Part shown: piece by piece, positions 33,907 through 43,717 of the stretch
How positions within the stretch are numbered: the stretch's first letter is position 1
How the letters are laid out: each line of letters begins with the position of its first letter
DNA from: Promethearchaeota archaeon
GTDB lineage: Archaea; Asgardarchaeota; Hermodarchaeia; Hermodarchaeales; Hermodarchaeaceae
DNA: 59,704 bases
Assembly: GCA_048939245.1 (NCBI GenBank)
Contig: JBHLPR010000010.1
Location: 1-59,704, forward strand
Direction of reading: 5' to 3'
Translations under genes and position numbers: made by a program
Notes under the pieces: model-generated
Told to the model about the DNA's origin: nothing
Databases searched by the model: none
What the model saw: only the letters and a program-made list of their open reading frames with translations

Positions 33907-34293
33907 TTACTCCTCTGAGGATACGATGAGTTTTTCGATGAGGGTTTTAAAGGTCTCAGAAGAGAGGGCTCCTTTAATTAGGTAGTCTTTGGCTCCCATA
34001 TCCATTACCTCTTGAACCGTTTCATCGTCGTCGATAGCTGTTAAGGCAATGATGGCAATATCCGGATATTCGGTTGAGACTTGTTGAATAAGATCTGTCC
34101 CACTAATTTTAGGGAGTACCAAATCCACGAAGAAGATGTCAGGAGGATTAGCCTTGAGCTTTCTAAGGGCTTCTTCTCCATCTGCTGCTGTCTCGATGTC
34201 ATAATCACGAAGGAGTAGTTGTGCAGCTCGAAGGAAGGTTTCTGAGTCGTCTGCTAGCAGGATTTTTATTTCATGCGATTTCTTGGAAGCCAA
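33907..34293 (-). CDS. Single-domain response regulator (REC)
   Basis: LADD, VDLVLP (phosphoacceptor Asp), ALTA, GAKDYLIK. Confidence 0.92.
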   Translation of the reverse strand: MASKKSHEIKILLADDSETFLRAAQLLLRDYDIETAADGEEALRKLKANPPDIFFVDLVLPKISGTDLIQQVSTEYPDIAIIALTAIDDDETVQEVMDMGAKDYLIKGALSSETFKTLIEKLIVSSEE

Positions 34294-35737
34294 TTTGTGG
34301 TTTACCCTCCACGAGATGTGTGTAAAGACAGTATTGAGGAGTTGAAGGGTTGATGCCGCGAAATACTGTGACTCCTTCTTTTACTGCTATTTCAACGTGA
34401 ATATCAGCTAAGTCTGCAAGATATTGGTTAATTACCTCTGTACTACTATAGCCGATGGTCACAGCTAAGTTACTTTCGGTAGCAGTATCATTAGCTATGC
34501 GTGTAGCCCAGCGTGGAAGATCCGCGGGACCTAGCCAGGAGTGTAACCAACCAAAACCAACAACGCTGAGAAGGTCTTTGCATCCTTGGTTTCGGAGTTC
34601 TTCCAAAGCCATGCTCCACGCATTTTCTAGGTCAGAGCTTTCACGAAAAGCCACGGTTTTGTAATACGGTTCTCCCAATTCTCCTGTTGCACTAGAAACG
34701 CCTAAACTGGTAGCGGCACTAGCAAAGAGTCGTAACCGTGTATTTAGTTGATCAACGAAGCCGTATCGAAGTGCTGCGGCTTTCAGTCTTCGGAAACTGA
34801 GTTTGTTTGGAGGAACAATAATTACTCCGCTATCTTGACGAAGAAAGTTGGCAACTATGTTTAATACTAAACCATTGATTGCCTCATTGGCCACACCCTC
34901 AGAGACGTCAATGAAGAAGGTGCTTCCGCGACGAAATCCACCATATATCTCGTCAAGTTCTTTACTTCCGGATGAGAATCGACCACCAGTATGTGGGATG
35001 ACTTCGAAGCCAGAAACCCGGACAGCTTGTTCAGCGTCATATGGGTGTAAGATAGAGAATCGGTTTCCCCGAAGTGAAAACCCTCGCATCCCCTGATCGA
35101 TTGGGGTTCCTCGAAGTTTAATTAATTTAAGGCTTCGCCACATCCGTCCTTCTGTAAATTCTTTTGTTACGCATACAATGCCATCAACGATATGATCAAG
35201 GGGGGACTCGCTGATGCCTTCAACGACTAGAATAATTTTGCCTGACAGGATTCTTCCTAAGTTGGTTAGAGCACTGGTTAAGCGTTGGGGGTCTGCTTGG
35301 GCTGCTTCAATGATGGCGTCAAATGAGTCGATGATACAAATAGGGGAATTTAGATTCCGAAGGCGATCATTAACAGCACTGATGAAAGTTAATTCGTCAG
35401 AATATACCATACGATTTTGAGAAGGCTCTCCAGCTTCCAAAGGAGATTCTGGAACTCCCATCAATGATGGGGTTGCATCAACAATTTGACCCTCAGGAAG
35501 CATTTCAAAAGCCCAAGCGAATTGTGATTTAAGACTTGTATTGGAAACACGGGATGACAGATAGATGAAATTCTCTGAACTGAATTTGTCAGGAAGCCTT
35601 TGTTCAAGCTCCTCTAATAGAGATAAGGCAAAGGTCGATTTACCAGTTCCCGACCTTCCTTTAACAAGTAAGCTTTGTCCTTGTTCTTGTTTAAAGAATT
35701 CAATGAGTTCTTGTGGGAGGGTCACCTGTTCTTGCAC
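34271..35737 (-). CDS. GvpD-like two-domain KaiC/RecA-superfamily ATPase
   Basis: LPQELIEFF, GRSGTGKS, IDSFDA, LDHIVDGIV, KLRG; second domain SSGSKELD..YGGF lacks a Walker A. Confidence 0.8.
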   Translation of the reverse strand: MQEQVTLPQELIEFFKQEQGQSLLVKGRSGTGKSTFALSLLEELEQRLPDKFSSENFIYLSSRVSNTSLKSQFAWAFEMLPEGQIVDATPSLMGVPESPLEAGEPSQNRMVYSDELTFISAVNDRLRNLNSPICIIDSFDAIIEAAQADPQRLTSALTNLGRILSGKIILVVEGISESPLDHIVDGIVCVTKEFTEGRMWRSLKLIKLRGTPIDQGMRGFSLRGNRFSILHPYDAEQAVRVSGFEVIPHTGGRFSSGSKELDEIYGGFRRGSTFFIDVSEGVANEAINGLVLNIVANFLRQDSGVIIVPPNKLSFRRLKAAALRYGFVDQLNTRLRLFASAATSLGVSSATGELGEPYYKTVAFRESSDLENAWSMALEELRNQGCKDLLSVVGFGWLHSWLGPADLPRWATRIANDTATESNLAVTIGYSSTEVINQYLADLADIHVEIAVKEGVTVFRGINPSTPQYCLYTHLVEGKPQIGFQEIA

Positions 35738-35749
35738 CTTCTAAGCGAT

Positions 35750-36304
35750 TTACGTTATCACCTTCGCAGAGTGATCTAGAAGTAACTTCGATATTGTCTG
35801 GAAAAGTTCTTTTATATTGGTTCCAGCTTTTGCGGAAGTTTCTAAATAGCCAAGCATGTTCAGGCTCTTCCTTAATTTTTCTGCTGAGCTAGGTGTGACT
35901 ACCCTATCTTCATTCAAGTCCGCTTTATTACCAACTAGAAAGAGAAGAACCTCGGGTGCACCTTGTCGTACATCCTTTACCCATTCTTTGACACAATCTA
36001 GTGTGTCTTCTCTTGTTAAATCAAATACAACAACAGCGAAATCAGTTCCAAAGAGATATTGGACCCGAACACGCTGAAATGAGGTTTGACCTGCCAAGTC
36101 CCATACCTGAAGTGAAATATCTGAACCGCTTACAGAAGTCTTGAATGTAGAAATGGCAGCCCCAAGCGTTGCCTTGTAGCCTTCATCAAAAGAATTCGTC
36201 ATGTAACGTTTTATGATTGAGGTCTTTCCAACAGCATAATCCCCAATCACTGAAACTTTGAACATGTATCGGCCACTTTTGGGCACCATTCCTTTTGTCA
36301 CCAT
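35750..36304 (-). CDS. Rab-like small GTPase
   Basis: G1 GDYAVGKTS, G2 YKATLG, G3 WDLAGQ, G4 NKAD, G5 ETSAK; no C-terminal Cys. Confidence 0.92.
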   Translation of the reverse strand: MVTKGMVPKSGRYMFKVSVIGDYAVGKTSIIKRYMTNSFDEGYKATLGAAISTFKTSVSGSDISLQVWDLAGQTSFQRVRVQYLFGTDFAVVVFDLTREDTLDCVKEWVKDVRQGAPEVLLFLVGNKADLNEDRVVTPSSAEKLRKSLNMLGYLETSAKAGTNIKELFQTISKLLLDHSAKVIT

Positions 36305-36393
36305 ACCCAGATTTTTTCCCTCAGATGATTATCTCATATTGATGAAATTTAAGCTCGACGGTATTGATACGATTTCATTCTCCTAGTTTGTGT

Positions 36394-37134
36394 TTATTGA
36401 ATCGGGGGTAGATCCGAGACCTTAATGCCTTCATCACCTATTATGAGCAGAAGGGGATTCATTTGATGGCTTGTCCCTCGCATTTTTCCAATCTCGATAG
36501 TCCTGATGCGTATAGTTCCTTGGCTCATCAGCTTCAACATTATTACGCCATCCATGAGAAAGCCTTCGACATCAAAGCGACCAACGCTGTCATCTGAGGG
36601 ACTTTCTACTGCGACTAAGCAAGTGGCTTGACTCATACGCAGAGATCGAACCATATTAAGCAGGTCGTGACGAATACGAAACAAATCCTTGTGCTGGAGA
36701 GTAAGTGTAGAAATTGAGTCGATGGCTACGCGCTTTGCTTTGATTCGTCGAATTTCTCGATGAATCAATGATAGAAGGGATTCCATGGTAAATTCCTCTC
36801 GACCTAGCACTGGATGTTCTGGTTTCAGGACCACACGTTCATTCTGTATCATGGGTGAAGCATCAACCATGGCAATTAGACCTTTATCAATGAGATTTTG
36901 TAGATCCCAACCAAATTGCTTCATATTACGGATAGTTGAAGGAATGGATTCTTCCATCGATACTAATACGCCTGGTTCTTTGAATTTTTTAGCCCCTTCA
37001 ACGAGAAATTGGTTCATTAGAATTGATTTCCCTGTTCCAGGGCCACCACTAACTAGAATTACTGCACCCTCGGGAAAGCCACCATGTAATGCTTCGTCTA
37101 GACCTGGAATACCGGATTTTGTCTTTTCAGCCAC
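36394..37134 (-). CDS. Single-domain KaiC/RAD55-family ATPase
   Basis: SGIPGLD...GGFP, GGPGTGKS, MEE, IDSIS, DGVIML, KMRGT.H; GTG start at 37134. Confidence 0.9.
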   Translation of the reverse strand: MAEKTKSGIPGLDEALHGGFPEGAVILVSGGPGTGKSILMNQFLVEGAKKFKEPGVLVSMEESIPSTIRNMKQFGWDLQNLIDKGLIAMVDASPMIQNERVVLKPEHPVLGREEFTMESLLSLIHREIRRIKAKRVAIDSISTLTLQHKDLFRIRHDLLNMVRSLRMSQATCLVAVESPSDDSVGRFDVEGFLMDGVIMLKLMSQGTIRIRTIEIGKMRGTSHQMNPLLLIIGDEGIKVSDLPPIQ

Positions 37135-37414
37135 ACTAATCCCCCGATTAGATGGTCTCCTAATATTCAAGTACCAAATTGATGATTTAAGAGGTTTGCG
37201 TATCTTCTCAAACTAATTCCCTACCTCTACAGACTTCCCAAAAGCTTCTGAGTTAAATATCGGGTTTGTTTTGGGTCCCAAGAATCAACACATGCTGAGT
37301 CATATATTATCACGCTGACCCCAAACATATCAGAAGTATCAATACGCTAGCAAGTACAATTATGGGGTGATGTCATTACTTAGTTAAATTCTAAAAGAAT
37401 TCGTATTCAAAATG

Positions 37415-37777
37415 TTAGTAATCTTCATCGTGTTTCTTTGGTTTTGTAGGTCCTCCATCTTCTAGAAAGAGAATGCCACTTGTTGCACCAAATGGAGGTA
37501 TATGTGCCCTACGGGCAGTATCGCGTCTAAGTCGTTCAAGCTCTTTTGGAGGCCTATCGCGCGGAATCAACAAAAGTGCAGTTAGAATTGCAAATAATCC
37601 ACCTAAAGGTATGGCAAAAACCGGATTTATTATGAGCAAAATGGCAAAAATGGGAGTGAATATTAGAATTAAAAAAAGGATACAGGATTCACGTCTTTTT
37701 TGTGTTGCACTTACTTTTGCTCCTTCACTATTTTTGGTTGATATCCCAGTCACCCTAATATTAAATTGAGATTTCAA
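37415..37777 (-). CDS. Small two-TM membrane protein (start uncertain)
   Basis: Two hydrophobic segments followed by a charged tail. Confidence 0.55.
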   Translation of the reverse strand: MKSQFNIRVTGISTKNSEGAKVSATQKRRESCILFLILIFTPIFAILLIINPVFAIPLGGLFAILTALLLIPRDRPPKELERLRRDTARRAHIPPFGATSGILFLEDGGPTKPKKHDEDY

Positions 37778-38025
37778 TCTTAAAAATCAATGGTCTGTTC
37801 TTTGCATCTATCAAAAGCTTTCCTAAAGGTTTTAAATTTTAAAATTCAATATTTCTACAATTCGGGCAATGCAATGCAACGAATTAACGAATTCCTATTC
37901 GCAAAGTGAATCATTAAGAACGAGACGTTCCCAAAACCTTTTTTCCTATATTAGAGAGCTAGAATATGAACTCGGCTACATACAACGGATCAAACAGTTG
38001 TTTGTGAAATACCGAGGGGGCTATC

Positions 38026-38733
38026 GTGATTCTTGATCCAATCTTGCAGAGGGGACTCCCACATGGAACCAGTATTGCATTGGTGGGGCCCCCTGGATCC
38101 GGAAAAACCTGTTTTAGCCTCCAAGTGTCACTTGATGCAATCAATCAGGGTCTTGATGCCCTATATCTGTCAACGGAAAACACCCCCTCCACTCTCATAA
38201 AACAAGCCCACGGATTCGGCATTCCACTCCCCAATGACCCAGCTAAAAACCCAATCCAATATATCGACGCTTATAGCTGGCGAATTGGTATGCAAAAAGA
38301 TCCGTTTGCCATCAATCGAATAAGTAATCCTGGAAACCTAAATGAAGTTAACTTGATTATCACAGATCATGCTAAGCTCTTGAAACCAGGGTCAATCATT
38401 GTAATTGATTCAGTTTCCGGGTTAAGCCTATCCGCTCCGGATGAGCAACGAATCCGCACCTTTATTCACAGCCTTGCCCAACGTATCATCAATCTTGAAA
38501 AAGTGCTCATTCTAATCCTTGAAGATCAAGCGCATGATGTAACACTAATAACCAATCTTCGATCTCTCGTCCAAGGATCAATCCACACAAAAGTTATTGA
38601 TGGTCCAAACGGCTCCCTTCAATGGTTTCTTCGATTATACAGTCTCATCGGCATCACTCACGATACTAGATGGTATCAAATGAAGACCGGAAAACAGGGT
38701 CTCTTCTTGCAAGGAGGTGCAAGCGGTGACTGA
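38026..38733 (+). CDS. RAD55/KaiC-like ATPase
   Basis: GPPGSGKT, YIDAYSW, IDSVS; K-x-R finger missing; GAGGGG RBS upstream. Confidence 0.8.
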   Translation: MILDPILQRGLPHGTSIALVGPPGSGKTCFSLQVSLDAINQGLDALYLSTENTPSTLIKQAHGFGIPLPNDPAKNPIQYIDAYSWRIGMQKDPFAINRISNPGNLNEVNLIITDHAKLLKPGSIIVIDSVSGLSLSAPDEQRIRTFIHSLAQRIINLEKVLILILEDQAHDVTLITNLRSLVQGSIHTKVIDGPNGSLQWFLRLYSLIGITHDTRWYQMKTGKQGLFLQGGASGD

Positions 38734-39409
38734 TATAATTGAACCAGCGTTCATACCAAAAGGGGCTGTGCAAATTCCGCGAGGTTCACAGCTTCTTCTC
38801 ATTGGTCCTCCAAGTGTGGTAAAGACAACGTTTGCACTACGGTATCTTATAGATCGTTTCCAATCAGATGAAGCTGCTGTGTTTGCTACAACCCTTTGGG
38901 CACCCCAACAAATCCGTGAGACTTTAAAACGAATTAGCGGCAACCAATTCGACTCTCAACTAAGAATAGCGGATGGCGTGTCTTGTGTCACAGCCCGACC
39001 TTCCACTGAAACCTATTCCTTCCAGAACCTTTACGATCTTAATACCATTAATCTGGTTCTTCTACAAGCTATTGCCGATTTGGAAAAAGGTCATCTTTGT
39101 CTAGATAATCTGACAACCTTGATGACATATTCAGCACCCCTTTCTGTAGTAAAATTCATTCAGGTTCTTTGTGCTCGAGTTAAACACAGCGGAGTCACTG
39201 GAATCTACTTGCTTGAAGCCGGTGTCCATTCCAAGGCTATTGTAGCAACTTTATGCTTTACCGTCGATGGCGTAATCGAAGTTCAAGATGAAGAAATAGA
39301 AGACCGGTTAATTAACAAAGTCCGTTTAACTCATCTTAGGGGAACACAAGTGGATTCCCGCTGGCTCTCTTTCAATGAAACAGAGCCATTCACGTGGGTA
39401 AATAGGTGA
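38726..39409 (+). CDS. RAD55/KaiC-like ATPase, degenerate Walker A
   Basis: GPPSVVKT, LDNLTTL, GVH, VDGVIE, HLRGT; GGAGGTG before GTG 38726, overlapping the upstream stop. Confidence 0.78.
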   Translation: MTDIIEPAFIPKGAVQIPRGSQLLLIGPPSVVKTTFALRYLIDRFQSDEAAVFATTLWAPQQIRETLKRISGNQFDSQLRIADGVSCVTARPSTETYSFQNLYDLNTINLVLLQAIADLEKGHLCLDNLTTLMTYSAPLSVVKFIQVLCARVKHSGVTGIYLLEAGVHSKAIVATLCFTVDGVIEVQDEEIEDRLINKVRLTHLRGTQVDSRWLSFNETEPFTWVNR

Positions 39410-39470
39410 GTGGGTTTTTTGATTGCGATTTCCAATCTAACTTTTTGATAAGCATCCAAGCCTTACATGA

Positions 39471-40028
39471 TTAACGAGTCTTTTCACTTTTGGGTGGAAA
39501 AAGGTAGTAGATGATATCTTCAAAGGTTTCTATGAACCCTGGTACAAGCACAATAGCTACGATGCATAAAACAAAAACACCAACAACCCCCAAAATAAAA
39601 CTCATCGGGTAGTGGGCAATTTCCCAAGGAAGAATGCCCATATACACAAGCCAAATTTCAAAGACAACTCGTAGCACATTAGCAACAAAGAGAGTCACTG
39701 TTACGACAATTATAGCTAGAATTTTCCGGCTCCACCTTCCGCGGGGTAAAGGAAGAATAAGCCCCATGAACACAGCAATAACTTGGATCCCGGTACATTC
39801 ACGCACTATTTGGTATTGCTGAAATCCAAACACAGAAACATAGACGAGACCATTTACCCAATCCACAATAGCGAAAGATGGTATGCCAATCCACGATAGG
39901 AAGACAGCTGATACAACTGCTGTTGGGATTGCGAGGATGAAGGGTTGTGGGAGAAAGTATACTAAAAGCGTTATAGTAATAGCCGTAATCAAATACAACA
40001 CAAGGGCACGTGGGGTAGGTCTTTCCAT
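39471..40028 (-). CDS. Archaeosortase/exosortase family protein (start may extend to 40106)
   Basis: IVRECTG (Cys), ANVLRV (Arg), IAHY (His) triad in a multi-TM protein. Confidence 0.82.
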   Translation of the reverse strand: MERPTPRALVLYLITAITITLLVYFLPQPFILAIPTAVVSAVFLSWIGIPSFAIVDWVNGLVYVSVFGFQQYQIVRECTGIQVIAVFMGLILPLPRGRWSRKILAIIVVTVTLFVANVLRVVFEIWLVYMGILPWEIAHYPMSFILGVVGVFVLCIVAIVLVPGFIETFEDIIYYLFPPKSEKTR

Positions 40029-40242
40029 GTCTTCTGATGATTCCTCAGCAACTCTCTCTGACGCATCCTCGTGGATAATCCGAGTATCTGTTGTTATTGG
40101 GTTCACCGTCCTTGTGGTAGGTGGTGCTGCTTTTCTACTGAATCAACAATTACTAGGGGAGACCTTAGTATTAGCTGGAGTTTTTTTGTTTGCCTTTACG
40201 CTCATTTGTTGGTTAGCTGCACGTCGGCGTACGAATCAGTAG
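40027..40242 (+). CDS. Possible small two-TM protein ending in RRR
   Basis: MSSDDSS...WIIRVSVVIGFTVLVVGGAAFLL...LVLAGVFLFAFTLICWLAARRRTNQ; fills an otherwise empty gap. Confidence 0.4.
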   Translation: MSSDDSSATLSDASSWIIRVSVVIGFTVLVVGGAAFLLNQQLLGETLVLAGVFLFAFTLICWLAARRRTNQ

Positions 40243-40321
40243 CCATGCAATCATTTCAACGCTTATTATATTTCTCCCTGAACTATCAATTCTGATAAAC
40301 CAAAGAAAGGACGACAGAATT

Positions 40322-43300
40322 TTAAATCCACATAGGCAAAAGAAAAACGAATTTCGCACCCTTCGTATGATTTCCTTCTACTCGGTCTTCAACCCAAATA
40401 CGACCCCCATATCGGTCAACTATTCGTTGTACTAACGTAAGACCAATCCCAGAACCTTGTGCCTTTTCAAAAACTCGTTGTGTGTATCGTGCAAAAATTC
40501 TCTCTTTCAGATCATCTGGAATACCAGGACCATGGTCACTTATTTCTATTCGTAGAAACCGCTTATTCGCATCAGGGCTGACCTGAACTTCAATCTCCAC
40601 TCTTTCATTTTGATCGAACTTTACTGCATTATGTAACACATTGAAAAATAAATCAAACAATAACTCATCAGCCAGAATCTTGTATTCCTCTGGGTGAATA
40701 TTGGTATCGAGAAAAATCGATTTTGAGGAGAACGCTTGTTTTACAGCATGAAGTGCTTCATGAAAGTCTGGCTCGATATCTCGAACCTCCATTAGCTTGT
40801 CAATTTCATCCAAACCCGAAAACTTCTTTACTCGACCAATTAGAGCCGCGCTTCGCTCAACCTGTTCTAATGATAATTGTAGCTGAGTTCGCAATTCTTC
40901 TGGTAGATCTGGATTCATTAATTGCAATTCCAAAGCTGAAAGAATGGCTTGATTGATATTGTTAAGATCATGGGCCATTAAATCAGTGAAAAATTCTGCA
41001 CGAGCTTTCGCTTCTTCCAGTGCACGTTCAGCAGCTTTTCGATCGGTGATGTTCCGAGTTACAATGATATACCCGGTTGGATTGCCATCTGCTCCAATTA
41101 ACATGGAGGCACTAATTTCTGCAGGGAATACGGTTCCATCACTAAGAATCACTGAAAATGGCGAAGGCATAGAAGATCCATGTTCTTTTGTGTTTTTGAG
41201 TGTTTCAATGGCTTTGGTTCGTTCTTCAGGAATTATAAAATCAAAACAATTCTTACCATGCAGTTCCTCAGGGGTCTTGAAGCCTAATAATTGAGCAGTG
41301 CGTTCATTGACTAGAAGGATAGTTCCATTAAGATCCGTTAGAGTTATTGAGTCAGGGGATGTCTCAACCAAGGAACGGTACCGTGCTTCTGATTCCCGTA
41401 AAATTTCATCTGCACGCATGCGTTGGGTGATATCTCGGCAAACTCCTCTAAAACCTTGAAGTTCCCCATTCTCCTCATATATGGGTCGCCCTGTAGCTTC
41501 AAGAAAAATGACATTTCCGTCTCGATGGATAAAACGATCCACAATATTTCTGAAAGGTTTCTGTTTGCTAAAGGACTCAACGAGGATTGGTTCTTCATTT
41601 TCTGTACTATCAGAATCTATGTATTCAAAAAATAGTCTCCCGATAATTTGACCCGCGGTGTACCCGAGAATATCCTCAACGGAACTATTCGAATAAGTAA
41701 ATTTACCTTCAGGATCCACTTCCCAAACCCAACCAGCGGTATCTTCGACAAGGGAACGAAATCTCTCTTCCGATGTTTTGAGTGCGATTTCCGCTAGCTT
41801 TCGTTCGGTGATATCCTCTCCAGAACTAATGATTCCAGTGCGATTTCCTTTCTCATCTTTCAATACTACAGTGTGCCACAGGATAATTCGCTCTTCGCCA
41901 TTCTTTCTGGTGATAGGGTTTTCCACGAATTCACTCAATTGGTGTGTGCCTGCCATTCCTTGATCAAAGAGCCTTTTCATATCATCTTGGTAAGATTTAG
42001 GGATACACAAATCAAAATAGTTCTGACCAATTAGCTCTTCTTCAGTATATCCGAAGATTTCACATCCTTTCCGATTAACAAGGAAAATTTTTTGGTCACG
42101 ATTAATACCAATGAATGCAGCGCCTGCAACATCCAGATATTGTTGGGCGCGGTCTCGTTCCATTCTTAGTAAATCTTCTGCAACTTTTCGTTCAGTGATA
42201 TCCTCACCAGCGGTTAAAGCACCGGTTGGATTCCCTGCTTCATCGAAAAACATGGTGGTATGCCATGAAACAAGTCTTTCAGCTCCTTCTTTGGTGATAA
42301 TTGGGTTCTCGACAAAGGTACGCGGTTCAACCTCACCTGCCATATTTGCACTGAATATCTTTTTCATTTCTGTCTGGAGCCTTTCGGGAAGACACAGGTC
42401 AAAATAGTTCTGCCCAAGCATTTCATCGTCGGTGTAACCGAAAATATCCAAGGTCTTCCGATTAACTAATGTAATAGTGCCCTCTGTATCAACAGCGATA
42501 AACATTACTCCTGCCATGTCCAGATAACGTTGAGCACGGTCTCGTTCCAAGCGTATGACCTCTTCGGTCATCTTTCGTTGATGAATATCCATTATTGCTG
42601 CTTGGGTTGCAGGTTTTCCTTGATATTCGATTACTGATAGGGTAAGTTCAAACCAGCGGACACTTCCATCTTTTAGGATCCCACGTAATTCCACACTGGA
42701 AGACACCGGTTTGCCTTGAATGATGTTTTGGAGTTGTTCCCATGGAAGATTGCGGTCATCTGGGTGAATAATATCAAAAATCTGCCAAGGCTTGAGTTGA
42801 AGAATCTCTTCTTCTGAGTAACCACTAATTCGAAGAAATGCAGGATTGATGAAAACGACTTTTCCGTCTTGGATGATGAATAATCCCTGTAGTGATTGGT
42901 CAACAAGTTGGCGATAGGCTTCTTCGGCGCGTTTTTGCTGTGTGATTTCTCGGGTTACTTCCACACATCCCAGAAGCTGCTTATGCTCGTCAAAGATAGG
43001 ATATCCTCTCACATGCCAGACACGTCCATCAGGGGTTGTCATTTCTCTTACTTGTATTTCACCGATTTGTCGTGCGGCAGCGACCGGACAATCAATACAG
43101 GGAGTATCACCACCAGTCCAAATCTCATAACAATGTTTGTCCAAGATATCATCAACGTGTAGATTGACGGATTCTGCGGCCGCTCGATTGGCCCATATGA
43201 TTCGATGCTCGGGGTCCTGGAAAATCACATGCTCCGAAATATTGTCTAAAATAATGGTTTTCTCATATTCCGATTGTTTTAACGCTTCTTGGCTCTCTTT

Positions 43301-43717
43301 GAGTTCGTATTGCTGTTGACGTAATTCCGAGATGTCTTTTTGGATAGAGATTGAGTACTTCAATGAGCCGTCTTTATCTCGGATGGCATTAGCGTTAAGC
43401 AATACAGTACGTTGTTCACCTGATTTACTCTGAATGATTACTTCTTCGTCAATAATAGATCCTGTTACCTGCCAGGCAGAAAATAGTTCATCCACTTTGT
43501 GTTTGGATTCGGAAGCATAGATTGTTCGAATATGTTTCCCGATGAGTTCAACGCGGTTAAAACCCAACACTTTGAGTGCAGCTTTGTTCAAGTCGAGAAT
43601 GATGCCTTTGGGCGAGACCATATAACAATACAACGGGGCGTTTTCAAAGAAGTGCCGAAACCGCAAATCATCTTCGTTACTGTTTAACCCTTGTTCGTCT
43701 CGATTATGTAAAGACAT
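40322..43717 (-). CDS. Cytoplasmic multi-PAS sensor histidine kinase (7 PAS domains)
   Basis: Repeated DIT/DIS-ERK-type PAS ends; H-box LMAHDLNN; N-box NAVKF; DHGPGI; GSGIGL. Confidence 0.92.
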   Translation of the reverse strand: MSLHNRDEQGLNSNEDDLRFRHFFENAPLYCYMVSPKGIILDLNKAALKVLGFNRVELIGKHIRTIYASESKHKVDELFSAWQVTGSIIDEEVIIQSKSGEQRTVLLNANAIRDKDGSLKYSISIQKDISELRQQQYELKESQEALKQSEYEKTIILDNISEHVIFQDPEHRIIWANRAAAESVNLHVDDILDKHCYEIWTGGDTPCIDCPVAAARQIGEIQVREMTTPDGRVWHVRGYPIFDEHKQLLGCVEVTREITQQKRAEEAYRQLVDQSLQGLFIIQDGKVVFINPAFLRISGYSEEEILQLKPWQIFDIIHPDDRNLPWEQLQNIIQGKPVSSSVELRGILKDGSVRWFELTLSVIEYQGKPATQAAIMDIHQRKMTEEVIRLERDRAQRYLDMAGVMFIAVDTEGTITLVNRKTLDIFGYTDDEMLGQNYFDLCLPERLQTEMKKIFSANMAGEVEPRTFVENPIITKEGAERLVSWHTTMFFDEAGNPTGALTAGEDITERKVAEDLLRMERDRAQQYLDVAGAAFIGINRDQKIFLVNRKGCEIFGYTEEELIGQNYFDLCIPKSYQDDMKRLFDQGMAGTHQLSEFVENPITRKNGEERIILWHTVVLKDEKGNRTGIISSGEDITERKLAEIALKTSEERFRSLVEDTAGWVWEVDPEGKFTYSNSSVEDILGYTAGQIIGRLFFEYIDSDSTENEEPILVESFSKQKPFRNIVDRFIHRDGNVIFLEATGRPIYEENGELQGFRGVCRDITQRMRADEILRESEARYRSLVETSPDSITLTDLNGTILLVNERTAQLLGFKTPEELHGKNCFDFIIPEERTKAIETLKNTKEHGSSMPSPFSVILSDGTVFPAEISASMLIGADGNPTGYIIVTRNITDRKAAERALEEAKARAEFFTDLMAHDLNNINQAILSALELQLMNPDLPEELRTQLQLSLEQVERSAALIGRVKKFSGLDEIDKLMEVRDIEPDFHEALHAVKQAFSSKSIFLDTNIHPEEYKILADELLFDLFFNVLHNAVKFDQNERVEIEVQVSPDANKRFLRIEISDHGPGIPDDLKERIFARYTQRVFEKAQGSGIGLTLVQRIVDRYGGRIWVEDRVEGNHTKGAKFVFLLPMWI

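Follow-up and report, generated by a model that had tools for sequence, protein, structure and literature searches.

In the genome of a Promethearchaeota archaeon (Hermodarchaeaceae), the gene for a Rab-like GTPase lies inside a cluster of KaiC-family ATPase genes that also encodes a stand-alone receiver protein (REC) and, nearby, a soluble histidine kinase with seven PAS domains. The window analysed here is the whole stretch of 59,704 nucleotides (nt), positions 1-59,704 of the forward strand of contig JBHLPR010000010.1, from assembly GCA_048939245.1 (2.52 Mb, 122 contigs, completeness 88%). We read the locus as a two-component-controlled KaiC hub, conserved across one Hermodarchaeial family, with the Rab-like GTPase as a facultative partner, and judge the case for this reading to be about evenly poised. 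"Hub" denotes the kinase, three KaiC proteins (KaiC1-3), a GvpD-like ATPase and REC. We read the GTPase as an output or modulator of the hub that also has a hub-independent role, and not as a core or obligatory component. The link between the two-component proteins and the KaiC-family ATPases, as put forward in an earlier note on this DNA, is supported by an invariant gene overlap, the proximity of receiver and kinase genes, the joint absence of all hub genes on three contigs and the recurrence of the GvpD-like/REC pair in two other families. Relatives were sorted into the genus of the window (g1), a sister genus (g2) and a GC-rich metagenomic lineage, the contigs of which either bear the hub (g3; L069 and L071) or lack it (g4; L070, L072 and L079).

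The gene map was drawn from a listing of open reading frames (ORFs) and Pfam matches, with some NCBIfam models. It bears out the minus-strand order KaiC1, Rab-like GTPase, GvpD-like ATPase and intact REC proposed in the earlier note, the divergent pair of KaiC paralogs (KaiC2 and KaiC3, plus strand) and the soluble 7-PAS kinase about 3 kb off, which lies 3.1 kb upstream on the minus strand. The spacings of 89 nt and 12 nt and the 23-nt overlap are also correct as counted on the longest ORFs. Two starts call for comment: KaiC1 ends at 36394 as described, its longest ORF beginning at 37170 and not at 37134, and the GTPase gene, present as claimed, begins at the second ATG (36289), giving 179 amino acids (aa) and a 104-nt gap to KaiC1. 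This start was set by ortholog alignments and a GGTGA Shine-Dalgarno (SD) sequence. The features are:

33907-34293, minus strand: REC (Pfam Response_reg, 81.2 bits)
34271-35737, minus strand: GvpD-like ATPase (GvpD_P-loop PF07088, 58.9 bits, cut-off 24; GvpD_bR2 PF20440, 30.5, cut-off 27.9; KaiC, 43)
35750-36289, minus strand: Ras/Rab-like GTPase (longest ORF from 36304; Pfam Ras, 154 bits)
36347-36365, minus strand: putative BRE/TATA-like element upstream of the GTPase (alignment of 13 upstream regions)
36394-37170, minus strand: KaiC1 (Pfam KaiC, 225 bits)
37171-38025, no strand: KaiC1/KaiC2 divergent intergenic region (blastn)
38026-38733, plus strand: KaiC2 (Pfam KaiC, 81.3 bits)
38717-39409, plus strand: KaiC3 (Pfam KaiC, 65.7 bits; DUF7504, 50.2 bits)
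39471-40106, minus strand: exosortase/archaeosortase-family membrane protein, TM211 (NCBIfam TIGR04178, 44.9 bits, cut-off 23)
40322-43717, minus strand: 7-PAS soluble histidine kinase (PAS_9 in seven stretches; HATPase_c, 80.9 bits)

A census of the genome places this cluster in context. It holds three REC genes above the Pfam cut-off, four kinase cores and eight KaiC-family matches above the cut-off, four of the latter at the locus, so that the clustering of REC and KaiC-family genes there is not trivial. The same genome carries 28 small-GTPase ORFs, and a single adjacency to one of them is therefore weak evidence.

Receiver, kinase and KaiC-family ATPases

Both two-component partners are intact in their key residues. 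REC has its acid pocket (DD in LLADDSE, D in FFVDLVLP), the T in IALTA and the K in AKDYLIK. By sequence reading, the kinase carries an H-box (AHDLNN) and the DHGPGIP and GSGIGL boxes; its HisKA domain scores 18.3 bits in Pfam, under the cut-off, and no transmembrane segment is visible in it. The locus thus encodes a kinase with His box and HATPase_c and a receiver with Asp pocket, Thr and Lys. Each of the three REC genes of the genome has a histidine kinase gene no more than about 6 kb away, and mainly for this indirect reason the 7-PAS kinase is probably the cognate kinase of REC. Kinase and REC are, moreover, absent together on L070 and L072. The kinase keeps its position in g1 with a variable number of PAS domains, and g2 has at the same position a multi-PAS kinase that is about 27% identical. 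Within the genus both the number and the sequence of the PAS repeats change fast, seen as overlapping, shifted tblastn matches of 47-73% identity (L031-L037).

Three of the four KaiC-family proteins are short. KaiC1 is single-domain, with Walker A GGPGTGKS, a catalytic EE pair (SMEES) and Walker B AIDSIS; it matches KaiC chains in PDB at E 1e-71, is highly similar to the CI domain of true KaiC and is 82-92% identical within the genus, 70-73% in g2 and 80-87% in the GC-rich lineage. KaiC2, also single-domain (Walker A GPPGSGKT, Walker B IVIDSVS), matches the NCBIfam KaiC_arch_4/ArlH-like model under the cut-offs, and its gene overlaps that of KaiC3 by 17 nt. The Walker A of KaiC3 is degenerate (GPPSVVKT), and KaiC3 is for that reason probably an inactive partner of KaiC2. 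Both are kept in g1 and g2.

The fourth member, the GvpD-like protein of 488 aa, was modelled with AlphaFold2 (32 homologs, mean predicted local distance difference test score 86.7) as two RecA/KaiC-like domains, and in Foldseek the whole length of the model aligns with double-domain KaiC (E 5e-24). Its N-terminal domain looks active (Walker A GRSGTGKS, Walker B IIDSFD), and its C-terminal domain is without a P-loop, SEGVANEA standing in place of Walker A. The likely start is GTG 35725, behind the SD sequence AAGGTG. Orthologs, 58-97% identical, occur in the Hermod lineage only, and the next relatives are about 25-30% identical.

The connection between receiver and ATPase is seen in the 23-nt overlap of the GvpD-like and REC genes, unchanged in the three lineages that have the pair (g1, g2 and L069). 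Furthermore, the order GvpD-like then REC recurs in two distant Asgard families, in one of them with a divergent single-domain KaiC. With four KaiC-family genes, of which one has a degenerate Walker A and one a dead second domain, next to REC and a PAS kinase, the locus has the make-up of a KaiC-like hub, and two genera and one metagenomic lineage retain this set of KaiC-family, REC and kinase genes. On this basis we propose that the cytoplasmic kinase would sense a cytoplasmic cue and phosphorylate the stand-alone REC. The latter, translationally coupled to the GvpD-like double domain, would be made in stoichiometric amounts with it and would probably act on it directly, altering its assembly or ATPase cycle together with KaiC1 and the pair of KaiC2 and the presumably inactive KaiC3, which may be further ring-ATPase components of the hub. 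Where present, the GTPase would be a facultative partner or output, co-expressed with hub genes in g1.

KaiC-like ATPases were proposed in 2017 as archaeal signal transduction hubs, as summarised in PMC5847659, which also describes fusions of KaiC with REC in Methanosarcinaceae and response regulators that contain inactive KaiC domains (PMC5847659). The locus resembles such hubs in its clustered KaiC paralogs, one of them inactivated, in the company of signalling parts and in the connection to REC; it differs in that REC has a gene of its own, translationally coupled to that of the GvpD-like double domain, and in that a Rab-like GTPase gene is lodged inside. In the literature searched, which did not cover the 2017 KaiC-hub survey, we found neither a Rab-like GTPase in a KaiC cluster nor a recurrent GvpD-like/GTPase neighbourhood. 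The GvpD-like/REC pair appears to be a clean case of translational coupling between the genes of a receiver and a KaiC-family ATPase, which supports the view that two-component systems of the bacterial type feed into archaeal KaiC hubs.

The Rab-like GTPase and the separation of both parts

The G motifs of the GTPase are complete (G1 GDYAVGKT, switch-I T in YKATLG, G3 WDLAGQ with the catalytic Gln, G4 GNKADL, G5 ETSAK), and its best 60 PDB matches are all Rab/Ypt proteins (Ypt6, Rab6, Rab21, Rab43, Rab5, Rab11, Rab1) at E 1e-34 to 1e-29. Neither the protein (ending ...LLLDHSAKVIT) nor any aligned ortholog has a C-terminal Cys for geranylgeranylation, and we therefore call it Rab-like and not a Rab in the strict sense. 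Compared by eye with the RabF motifs, LQVWDLAGQ and VVVFDLT resemble RabF2 and RabF5, and LGAAI, SFQRVR and YLFGTDF depart from RabF1, F3 and F4. A word-based search of the longer homologs, which is a weak one, found no fusion of the GTPase with a KaiC domain.

The genomes of Asgard archaea carry dozens of genes for eukaryote-like small GTPases, with few assigned partners. In Thor-Rab, too, a Rab-like G domain goes with a short C-terminus and no C-terminal prenylation cysteines (PMC10933270), and the locus GTPase shares all three features. In MK-D1, genes for small GTPases do not as a rule share operons with roadblock, longin or TRAPPC3 genes; Asgard GTPases are seldom in operons with likely regulators, which makes their partners hard to predict from genome layout (PMC10933270). 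Compared with those GTPases, the one described here is in an apparent operon with KaiC-family and REC genes rather than with roadblock or longin genes. The locus may accordingly be taken as a testable list of candidate partners for an orphan Rab-like GTPase, namely the GvpD-like double-domain ATPase, KaiC1 and the receiver, and its relatives offer natural controls with the hub only, the GTPase only, both as separate units and both fused.

A different precedent is the MglA/MglB system of Myxococcus, which works with RomX and the receiver protein RomR and in which the activity of a Ras-superfamily GTPase is tied to a receiver-domain protein, with a chemosensory His-Asp pathway upstream. A Ras-superfamily GTPase in the company of a receiver and a His-Asp pathway is common to both, here at the level of genes. 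The locus differs from it in that no roadblock (MglB-like) gene lies on the contig, the GTPase is Rab-like and not MglA-like, and the ATPase partners have no counterpart.

The earlier note had called for a comparison of gene order across Asgard genomes. The order holds within the genus and recurs in one other lineage; in the sister genus the cluster is present but has no GTPase. In g1 the arrangement NifS-IscU / REC-GvpD-like-GTPase-KaiC1 is kept in 12 species-level genomes, and a block of about 17 kb from acyl-CoA dehydrogenase (ACAD) to acetyl-CoA synthetase (ACS), which is collinear across the family, is so in this genus as far as contigs reach (seven genomes with long flanks). Among 400 Asgard species genomes, orthologs of the GTPase were found in g1 only (12 of its 14 genomes). 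The g2 genomes keep kinase, KaiC1-3, GvpD-like and REC; KaiC1 is followed by the GvpD-like gene after 106-120 nt, and in three g2 genomes no GTPase lies between the two. In four g2 genomes the closest GTPase matches reach 39-44% identity, which is typical of paralogs, and in the tree they fall among other paralogs.

The GC-rich contigs (55-57% GC versus 43% in the window) form the second branch of the GTPase clade, which has support of 100/100, and their proteins are 56-67% identical to that of the window. L069 and L071 show the order KaiC1-GTPase-GvpD-like(-REC). L070, L072 and L079, which come from at least two studies, read ACS / archaeosortase-GTPase / IscU; kinase, KaiC1-3, GvpD-like and REC are all missing from these segments, the genes between them remaining. 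In the GTPase tree the copies from hub-less g4 branch within those from hub-bearing contigs (97/85), and the g4 state therefore reflects loss. A tree of NifS and IscU rooted with four other Asgard genomes gave (g1,(g2,(g3,g4))) with support of 94/87; ACS could not serve as rooting marker, having no outgroup match at E 1e-100. The NifS and IscU tree favours a GTPase present in the ancestor of the family, with loss in g2, over the alternative, which is not rejected (approximately unbiased test, p 0.09). The GTPase tree leaves the nearest paralog unresolved. With g2 lacking the GTPase and g4 lacking the hub, the two parts are separable in both directions, and given relatives that have either part alone, the GTPase is at most an optional add-on.

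The ratio of nonsynonymous to synonymous substitution rates (dN/dS) of the GTPase is 0.06-0.14 in every unsaturated comparison. Relaxed selection after hub loss was rejected for the intact hub-less copies, which stand at 0.11 against 0.06-0.14 elsewhere. On L079, also hub-less, the GTPase is a pseudogene, with about 38 codons including NKxD deleted and the frame shifted. A separate observation is that among L069, L070 and L072 the dS of the GTPase is 0.6-1.2, two to three times that of the flanking archaeosortase and IscU genes (about 0.35), a hint that the GTPase gene has undergone allele exchange or recombination.

Transcription units and neighbourhoods in other Asgard orders

The element AATACCGTCGAGCTTAAAT (consensus AAACCGACGnGCTTAAAT) stands some 60 nt upstream of the GTPase start, with the SD sequence after it. 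The consensus is common to all three GTPase-bearing contig groups (13 upstream regions), despite GC contents of 43% and 55-57%. Across the genome, words of the TTAAAT type are about three-fold enriched in the interval from -60 to -50 relative to ORF starts, where an archaeal TATA box would be expected, and we infer that the conserved element is a promoter with B recognition element (BRE)/TATA-like parts. The GvpD-like gene has a putative element of its own, AAC[C/T]TTTATGT ... GAGAGCGGGnTGTGA, in the gap between KaiC1 and GvpD-like in g2 and in the 143-nt gap between GTPase and GvpD-like in g3; on L069 these 143 nt hold a separate TATA-like element. This second element has been lost in g1 only, where 3-20 nt separate the GTPase stop from the GvpD-like gene, which is preceded by an AAGGTG SD sequence (8 of 8 genomes examined). 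From this loss and the tight spacing it follows that GTPase, GvpD-like and REC are probably co-transcribed in g1. The g3 arrangement would then consist of three units (KaiC1; GTPase; GvpD-like/REC), of which the last two appear to have been fused in g1 under the GTPase promoter. If the promoter reading is true, transcription should start about 25 nt downstream of GCTTAAAT, with no separate start before the GvpD-like gene in g1; both the GC-rich lineage and the sister genus are predicted to have a separate start after the AACCTTTATGT element.

To extend the comparison beyond the family, the flanks (±1.5 kb) of 63 distinct GvpD-like genes from two to three other Asgard orders, which form 28 orthogroups at 55% identity, were surveyed. 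KaiC neighbours were found in 5 of the 28 orthogroups, and REC lies directly downstream of GvpD-like in two families (L195 and L196). Small-GTPase neighbours occur in 4 of the 28. These genomes have 5-7 Ras-family matches per Mb, from which about 0.6 orthogroups with such a neighbour would be expected; with the discovery locus excluded, this gives a Poisson p of about 0.002-0.008, a rough figure, as the orthogroups are not fully independent and come from two to three orders.

Several of the surveyed arrangements deserve description in their own right. On L195 (5587-10780), a TPR protein, GvpD-like, REC (after a 21-nt gap) and a 234-aa ORF are encoded on one strand with a divergent single-domain KaiC, an arrangement that parallels the Hermod core without the GTPase. 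L192 (7130-9699, minus strand), L193 and L194, from three genomes of one genus, have GvpD-like, a 10-nt gap, a Ras-family GTPase and two genes for small membrane proteins; the latter have no Pfam match, and no REC belongs to this arrangement. L252 (G053:C1:3326000-3342000), in a complete genome of 3.58 Mb, shows GvpD-like, KaiC and a Ras-family GTPase of 175 aa; the surrounding 10 kb or so also contain three tandem genes for GTPases of about 320 aa and a TackOD1-HTH (AsnC-type) regulator, and hold 4 of the 26 Ras-family matches of that genome. Finally, L253 (5913-8326) and L254 (4757-7347) represent two paralogous GvpD-like genes, found in four genomes, each convergent with a gene of about 305 codons for a longin-Arf-like fusion that consists of an N-terminal longin-like domain (Clat_adaptor_s at 23.5 bits in one) and an Arf-like GTPase domain.

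Competing readings and neighbouring features

The place of the GTPase in the circuit, as drawn in the earlier note, came out weaker than the two-component/KaiC link: its apparent operon in g1 and the GTPase neighbours elsewhere speak for it, its separability both ways and its own promoter-like element against it. It is possible, with a probability clearly below that of the facultative partner, that the GTPase is a passenger without functional tie, which landed or was left between two units and was kept there by collinearity, its tight spacing being incidental compaction. The collinear block across the family, a conserved promoter-like element that travels with the GTPase, the hub without GTPase in g2 and the GTPase without hub under purifying selection would all fit a passenger. 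So would the 28 small-GTPase ORFs, with which chance adjacency is not rare, and the 14 Roadblock-family matches that a genome-wide family search found, none of them on the locus contig. A passenger fits less well with an association seen in two lineages despite a GTPase identity of only 56-67%, with GvpD-like/REC expression apparently dependent on the GTPase promoter in all eight g1 genomes examined, and with independent GvpD-like/GTPase neighbourhoods in other Asgard orders at the p values given above. At the opposite end stands the hybrid circuit envisaged in the earlier note, in which a His-Asp relay and KaiC rings control or obey the GTPase and the GvpD-like protein or KaiC1 acts as guanine nucleotide exchange factor (GEF), GTPase-activating protein (GAP) or effector. 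An obligate circuit of this kind would account for the one apparent operon of GTPase, GvpD-like and REC in g1, for the recurring neighbourhoods and for the GTPase pseudogene on one hub-less contig. We nevertheless consider it improbable, as g2 keeps the full hub without a GTPase ortholog, two hub-less contigs have an intact GTPase (dN/dS 0.11) and L069 has separate promoter-like elements and the 143-nt gap; in addition, we know of no GEF or GAP with a RecA/KaiC fold. The facultative-partner reading has its own weak points. Collinearity over about 17 kb in the family means that conserved position alone says little about function, the hub-less contigs measure 1-3 kb, which leaves room for the absent genes in other parts of those genomes, and the enrichment of GTPase neighbours is a rough estimate. 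Furthermore, the promoter-like elements are known as sequence motifs, and co-transcription, phosphotransfer, contact between REC and ATPase and any contact between GTPase and ATPase are inferred.

Two further readings concern the ATPases themselves. That the locus belongs to a named KaiC/GvpD system, be it the KaiABC clock, a gas-vesicle regulator or anti-virus defence, is largely excluded and has by far the lowest probability of all, even though KaiC1 is very similar to KaiC CI and the 488-aa GvpD-like protein passes both Pfam GvpD models. A KaiABC clock was rejected on the grounds that KaiC1-3 are single-domain, the second Walker A of the GvpD-like double domain is replaced, leaving a dead P-loop, and KaiB (PF07689) has no match in the 88%-complete genome, the Synechococcus control being positive. 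Haloarchaeal GvpD is a gas-vesicle repressor that lowers the level of the activator GvpE. The protein described here is like it in scoring above the cut-offs of GvpD_P-loop and GvpD_bR2 and in being a P-loop ATPase that may act on another regulator, and by this analogy the hub may have as its output a change in how stable or how active another protein is. It differs in that the locus has no gvp context: no gvp genes were seen in the neighbourhood by Pfam and sequence reading, and a search for GvpA (PF00741) gave no match in the genome, nor in the control genomes. A defence system was likewise discarded, PADLOC giving no meaningful match (best E 5.5e-5, about 20 bits). The more far-reaching proposal is that GvpD-like double-domain KaiC ATPases are dedicated small-GTPase partners across Asgard archaea, as regulator, effector or loading machine. 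We regard it as unlikely, less so than the obligate circuit and more so than a passenger GTPase. If true, ATP-driven KaiC rings, here under His-Asp control, would gate Rab-like and Arf-like switches, and this would amount to a prokaryote-type control layer for eukaryote-like GTPases that predates or parallels the roadblock and longin regulators.

Between KaiC3 and the kinase lies the gene for the exosortase/archaeosortase-family protein, a multi-pass protein of 211 aa with a CTG motif, the nearest models being heimdallarchaeosortase and ArtH. It stays beside the GTPase, directly upstream of it, on the contigs without KaiC, REC and kinase, and is probably outside the signalling set, as a mere syntenic neighbour. 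The KaiC1/KaiC2 spacer is unusual in length: it measures 856 nt here, most of the genus having 125-170 nt. By blastn its two ends correspond to these shorter spacers, and its middle (about 37375-37920) was seen solely in the genome of the window among the genomes compared, with no second copy there. No repeats or mobile element were found in the long spacer, and an ORF within it (37415-37777, 120 aa) gave no Pfam or NCBIfam match and no tblastn match in the relatives. Two further genomes of the genus have different long spacers of about 900 and 500 nt.

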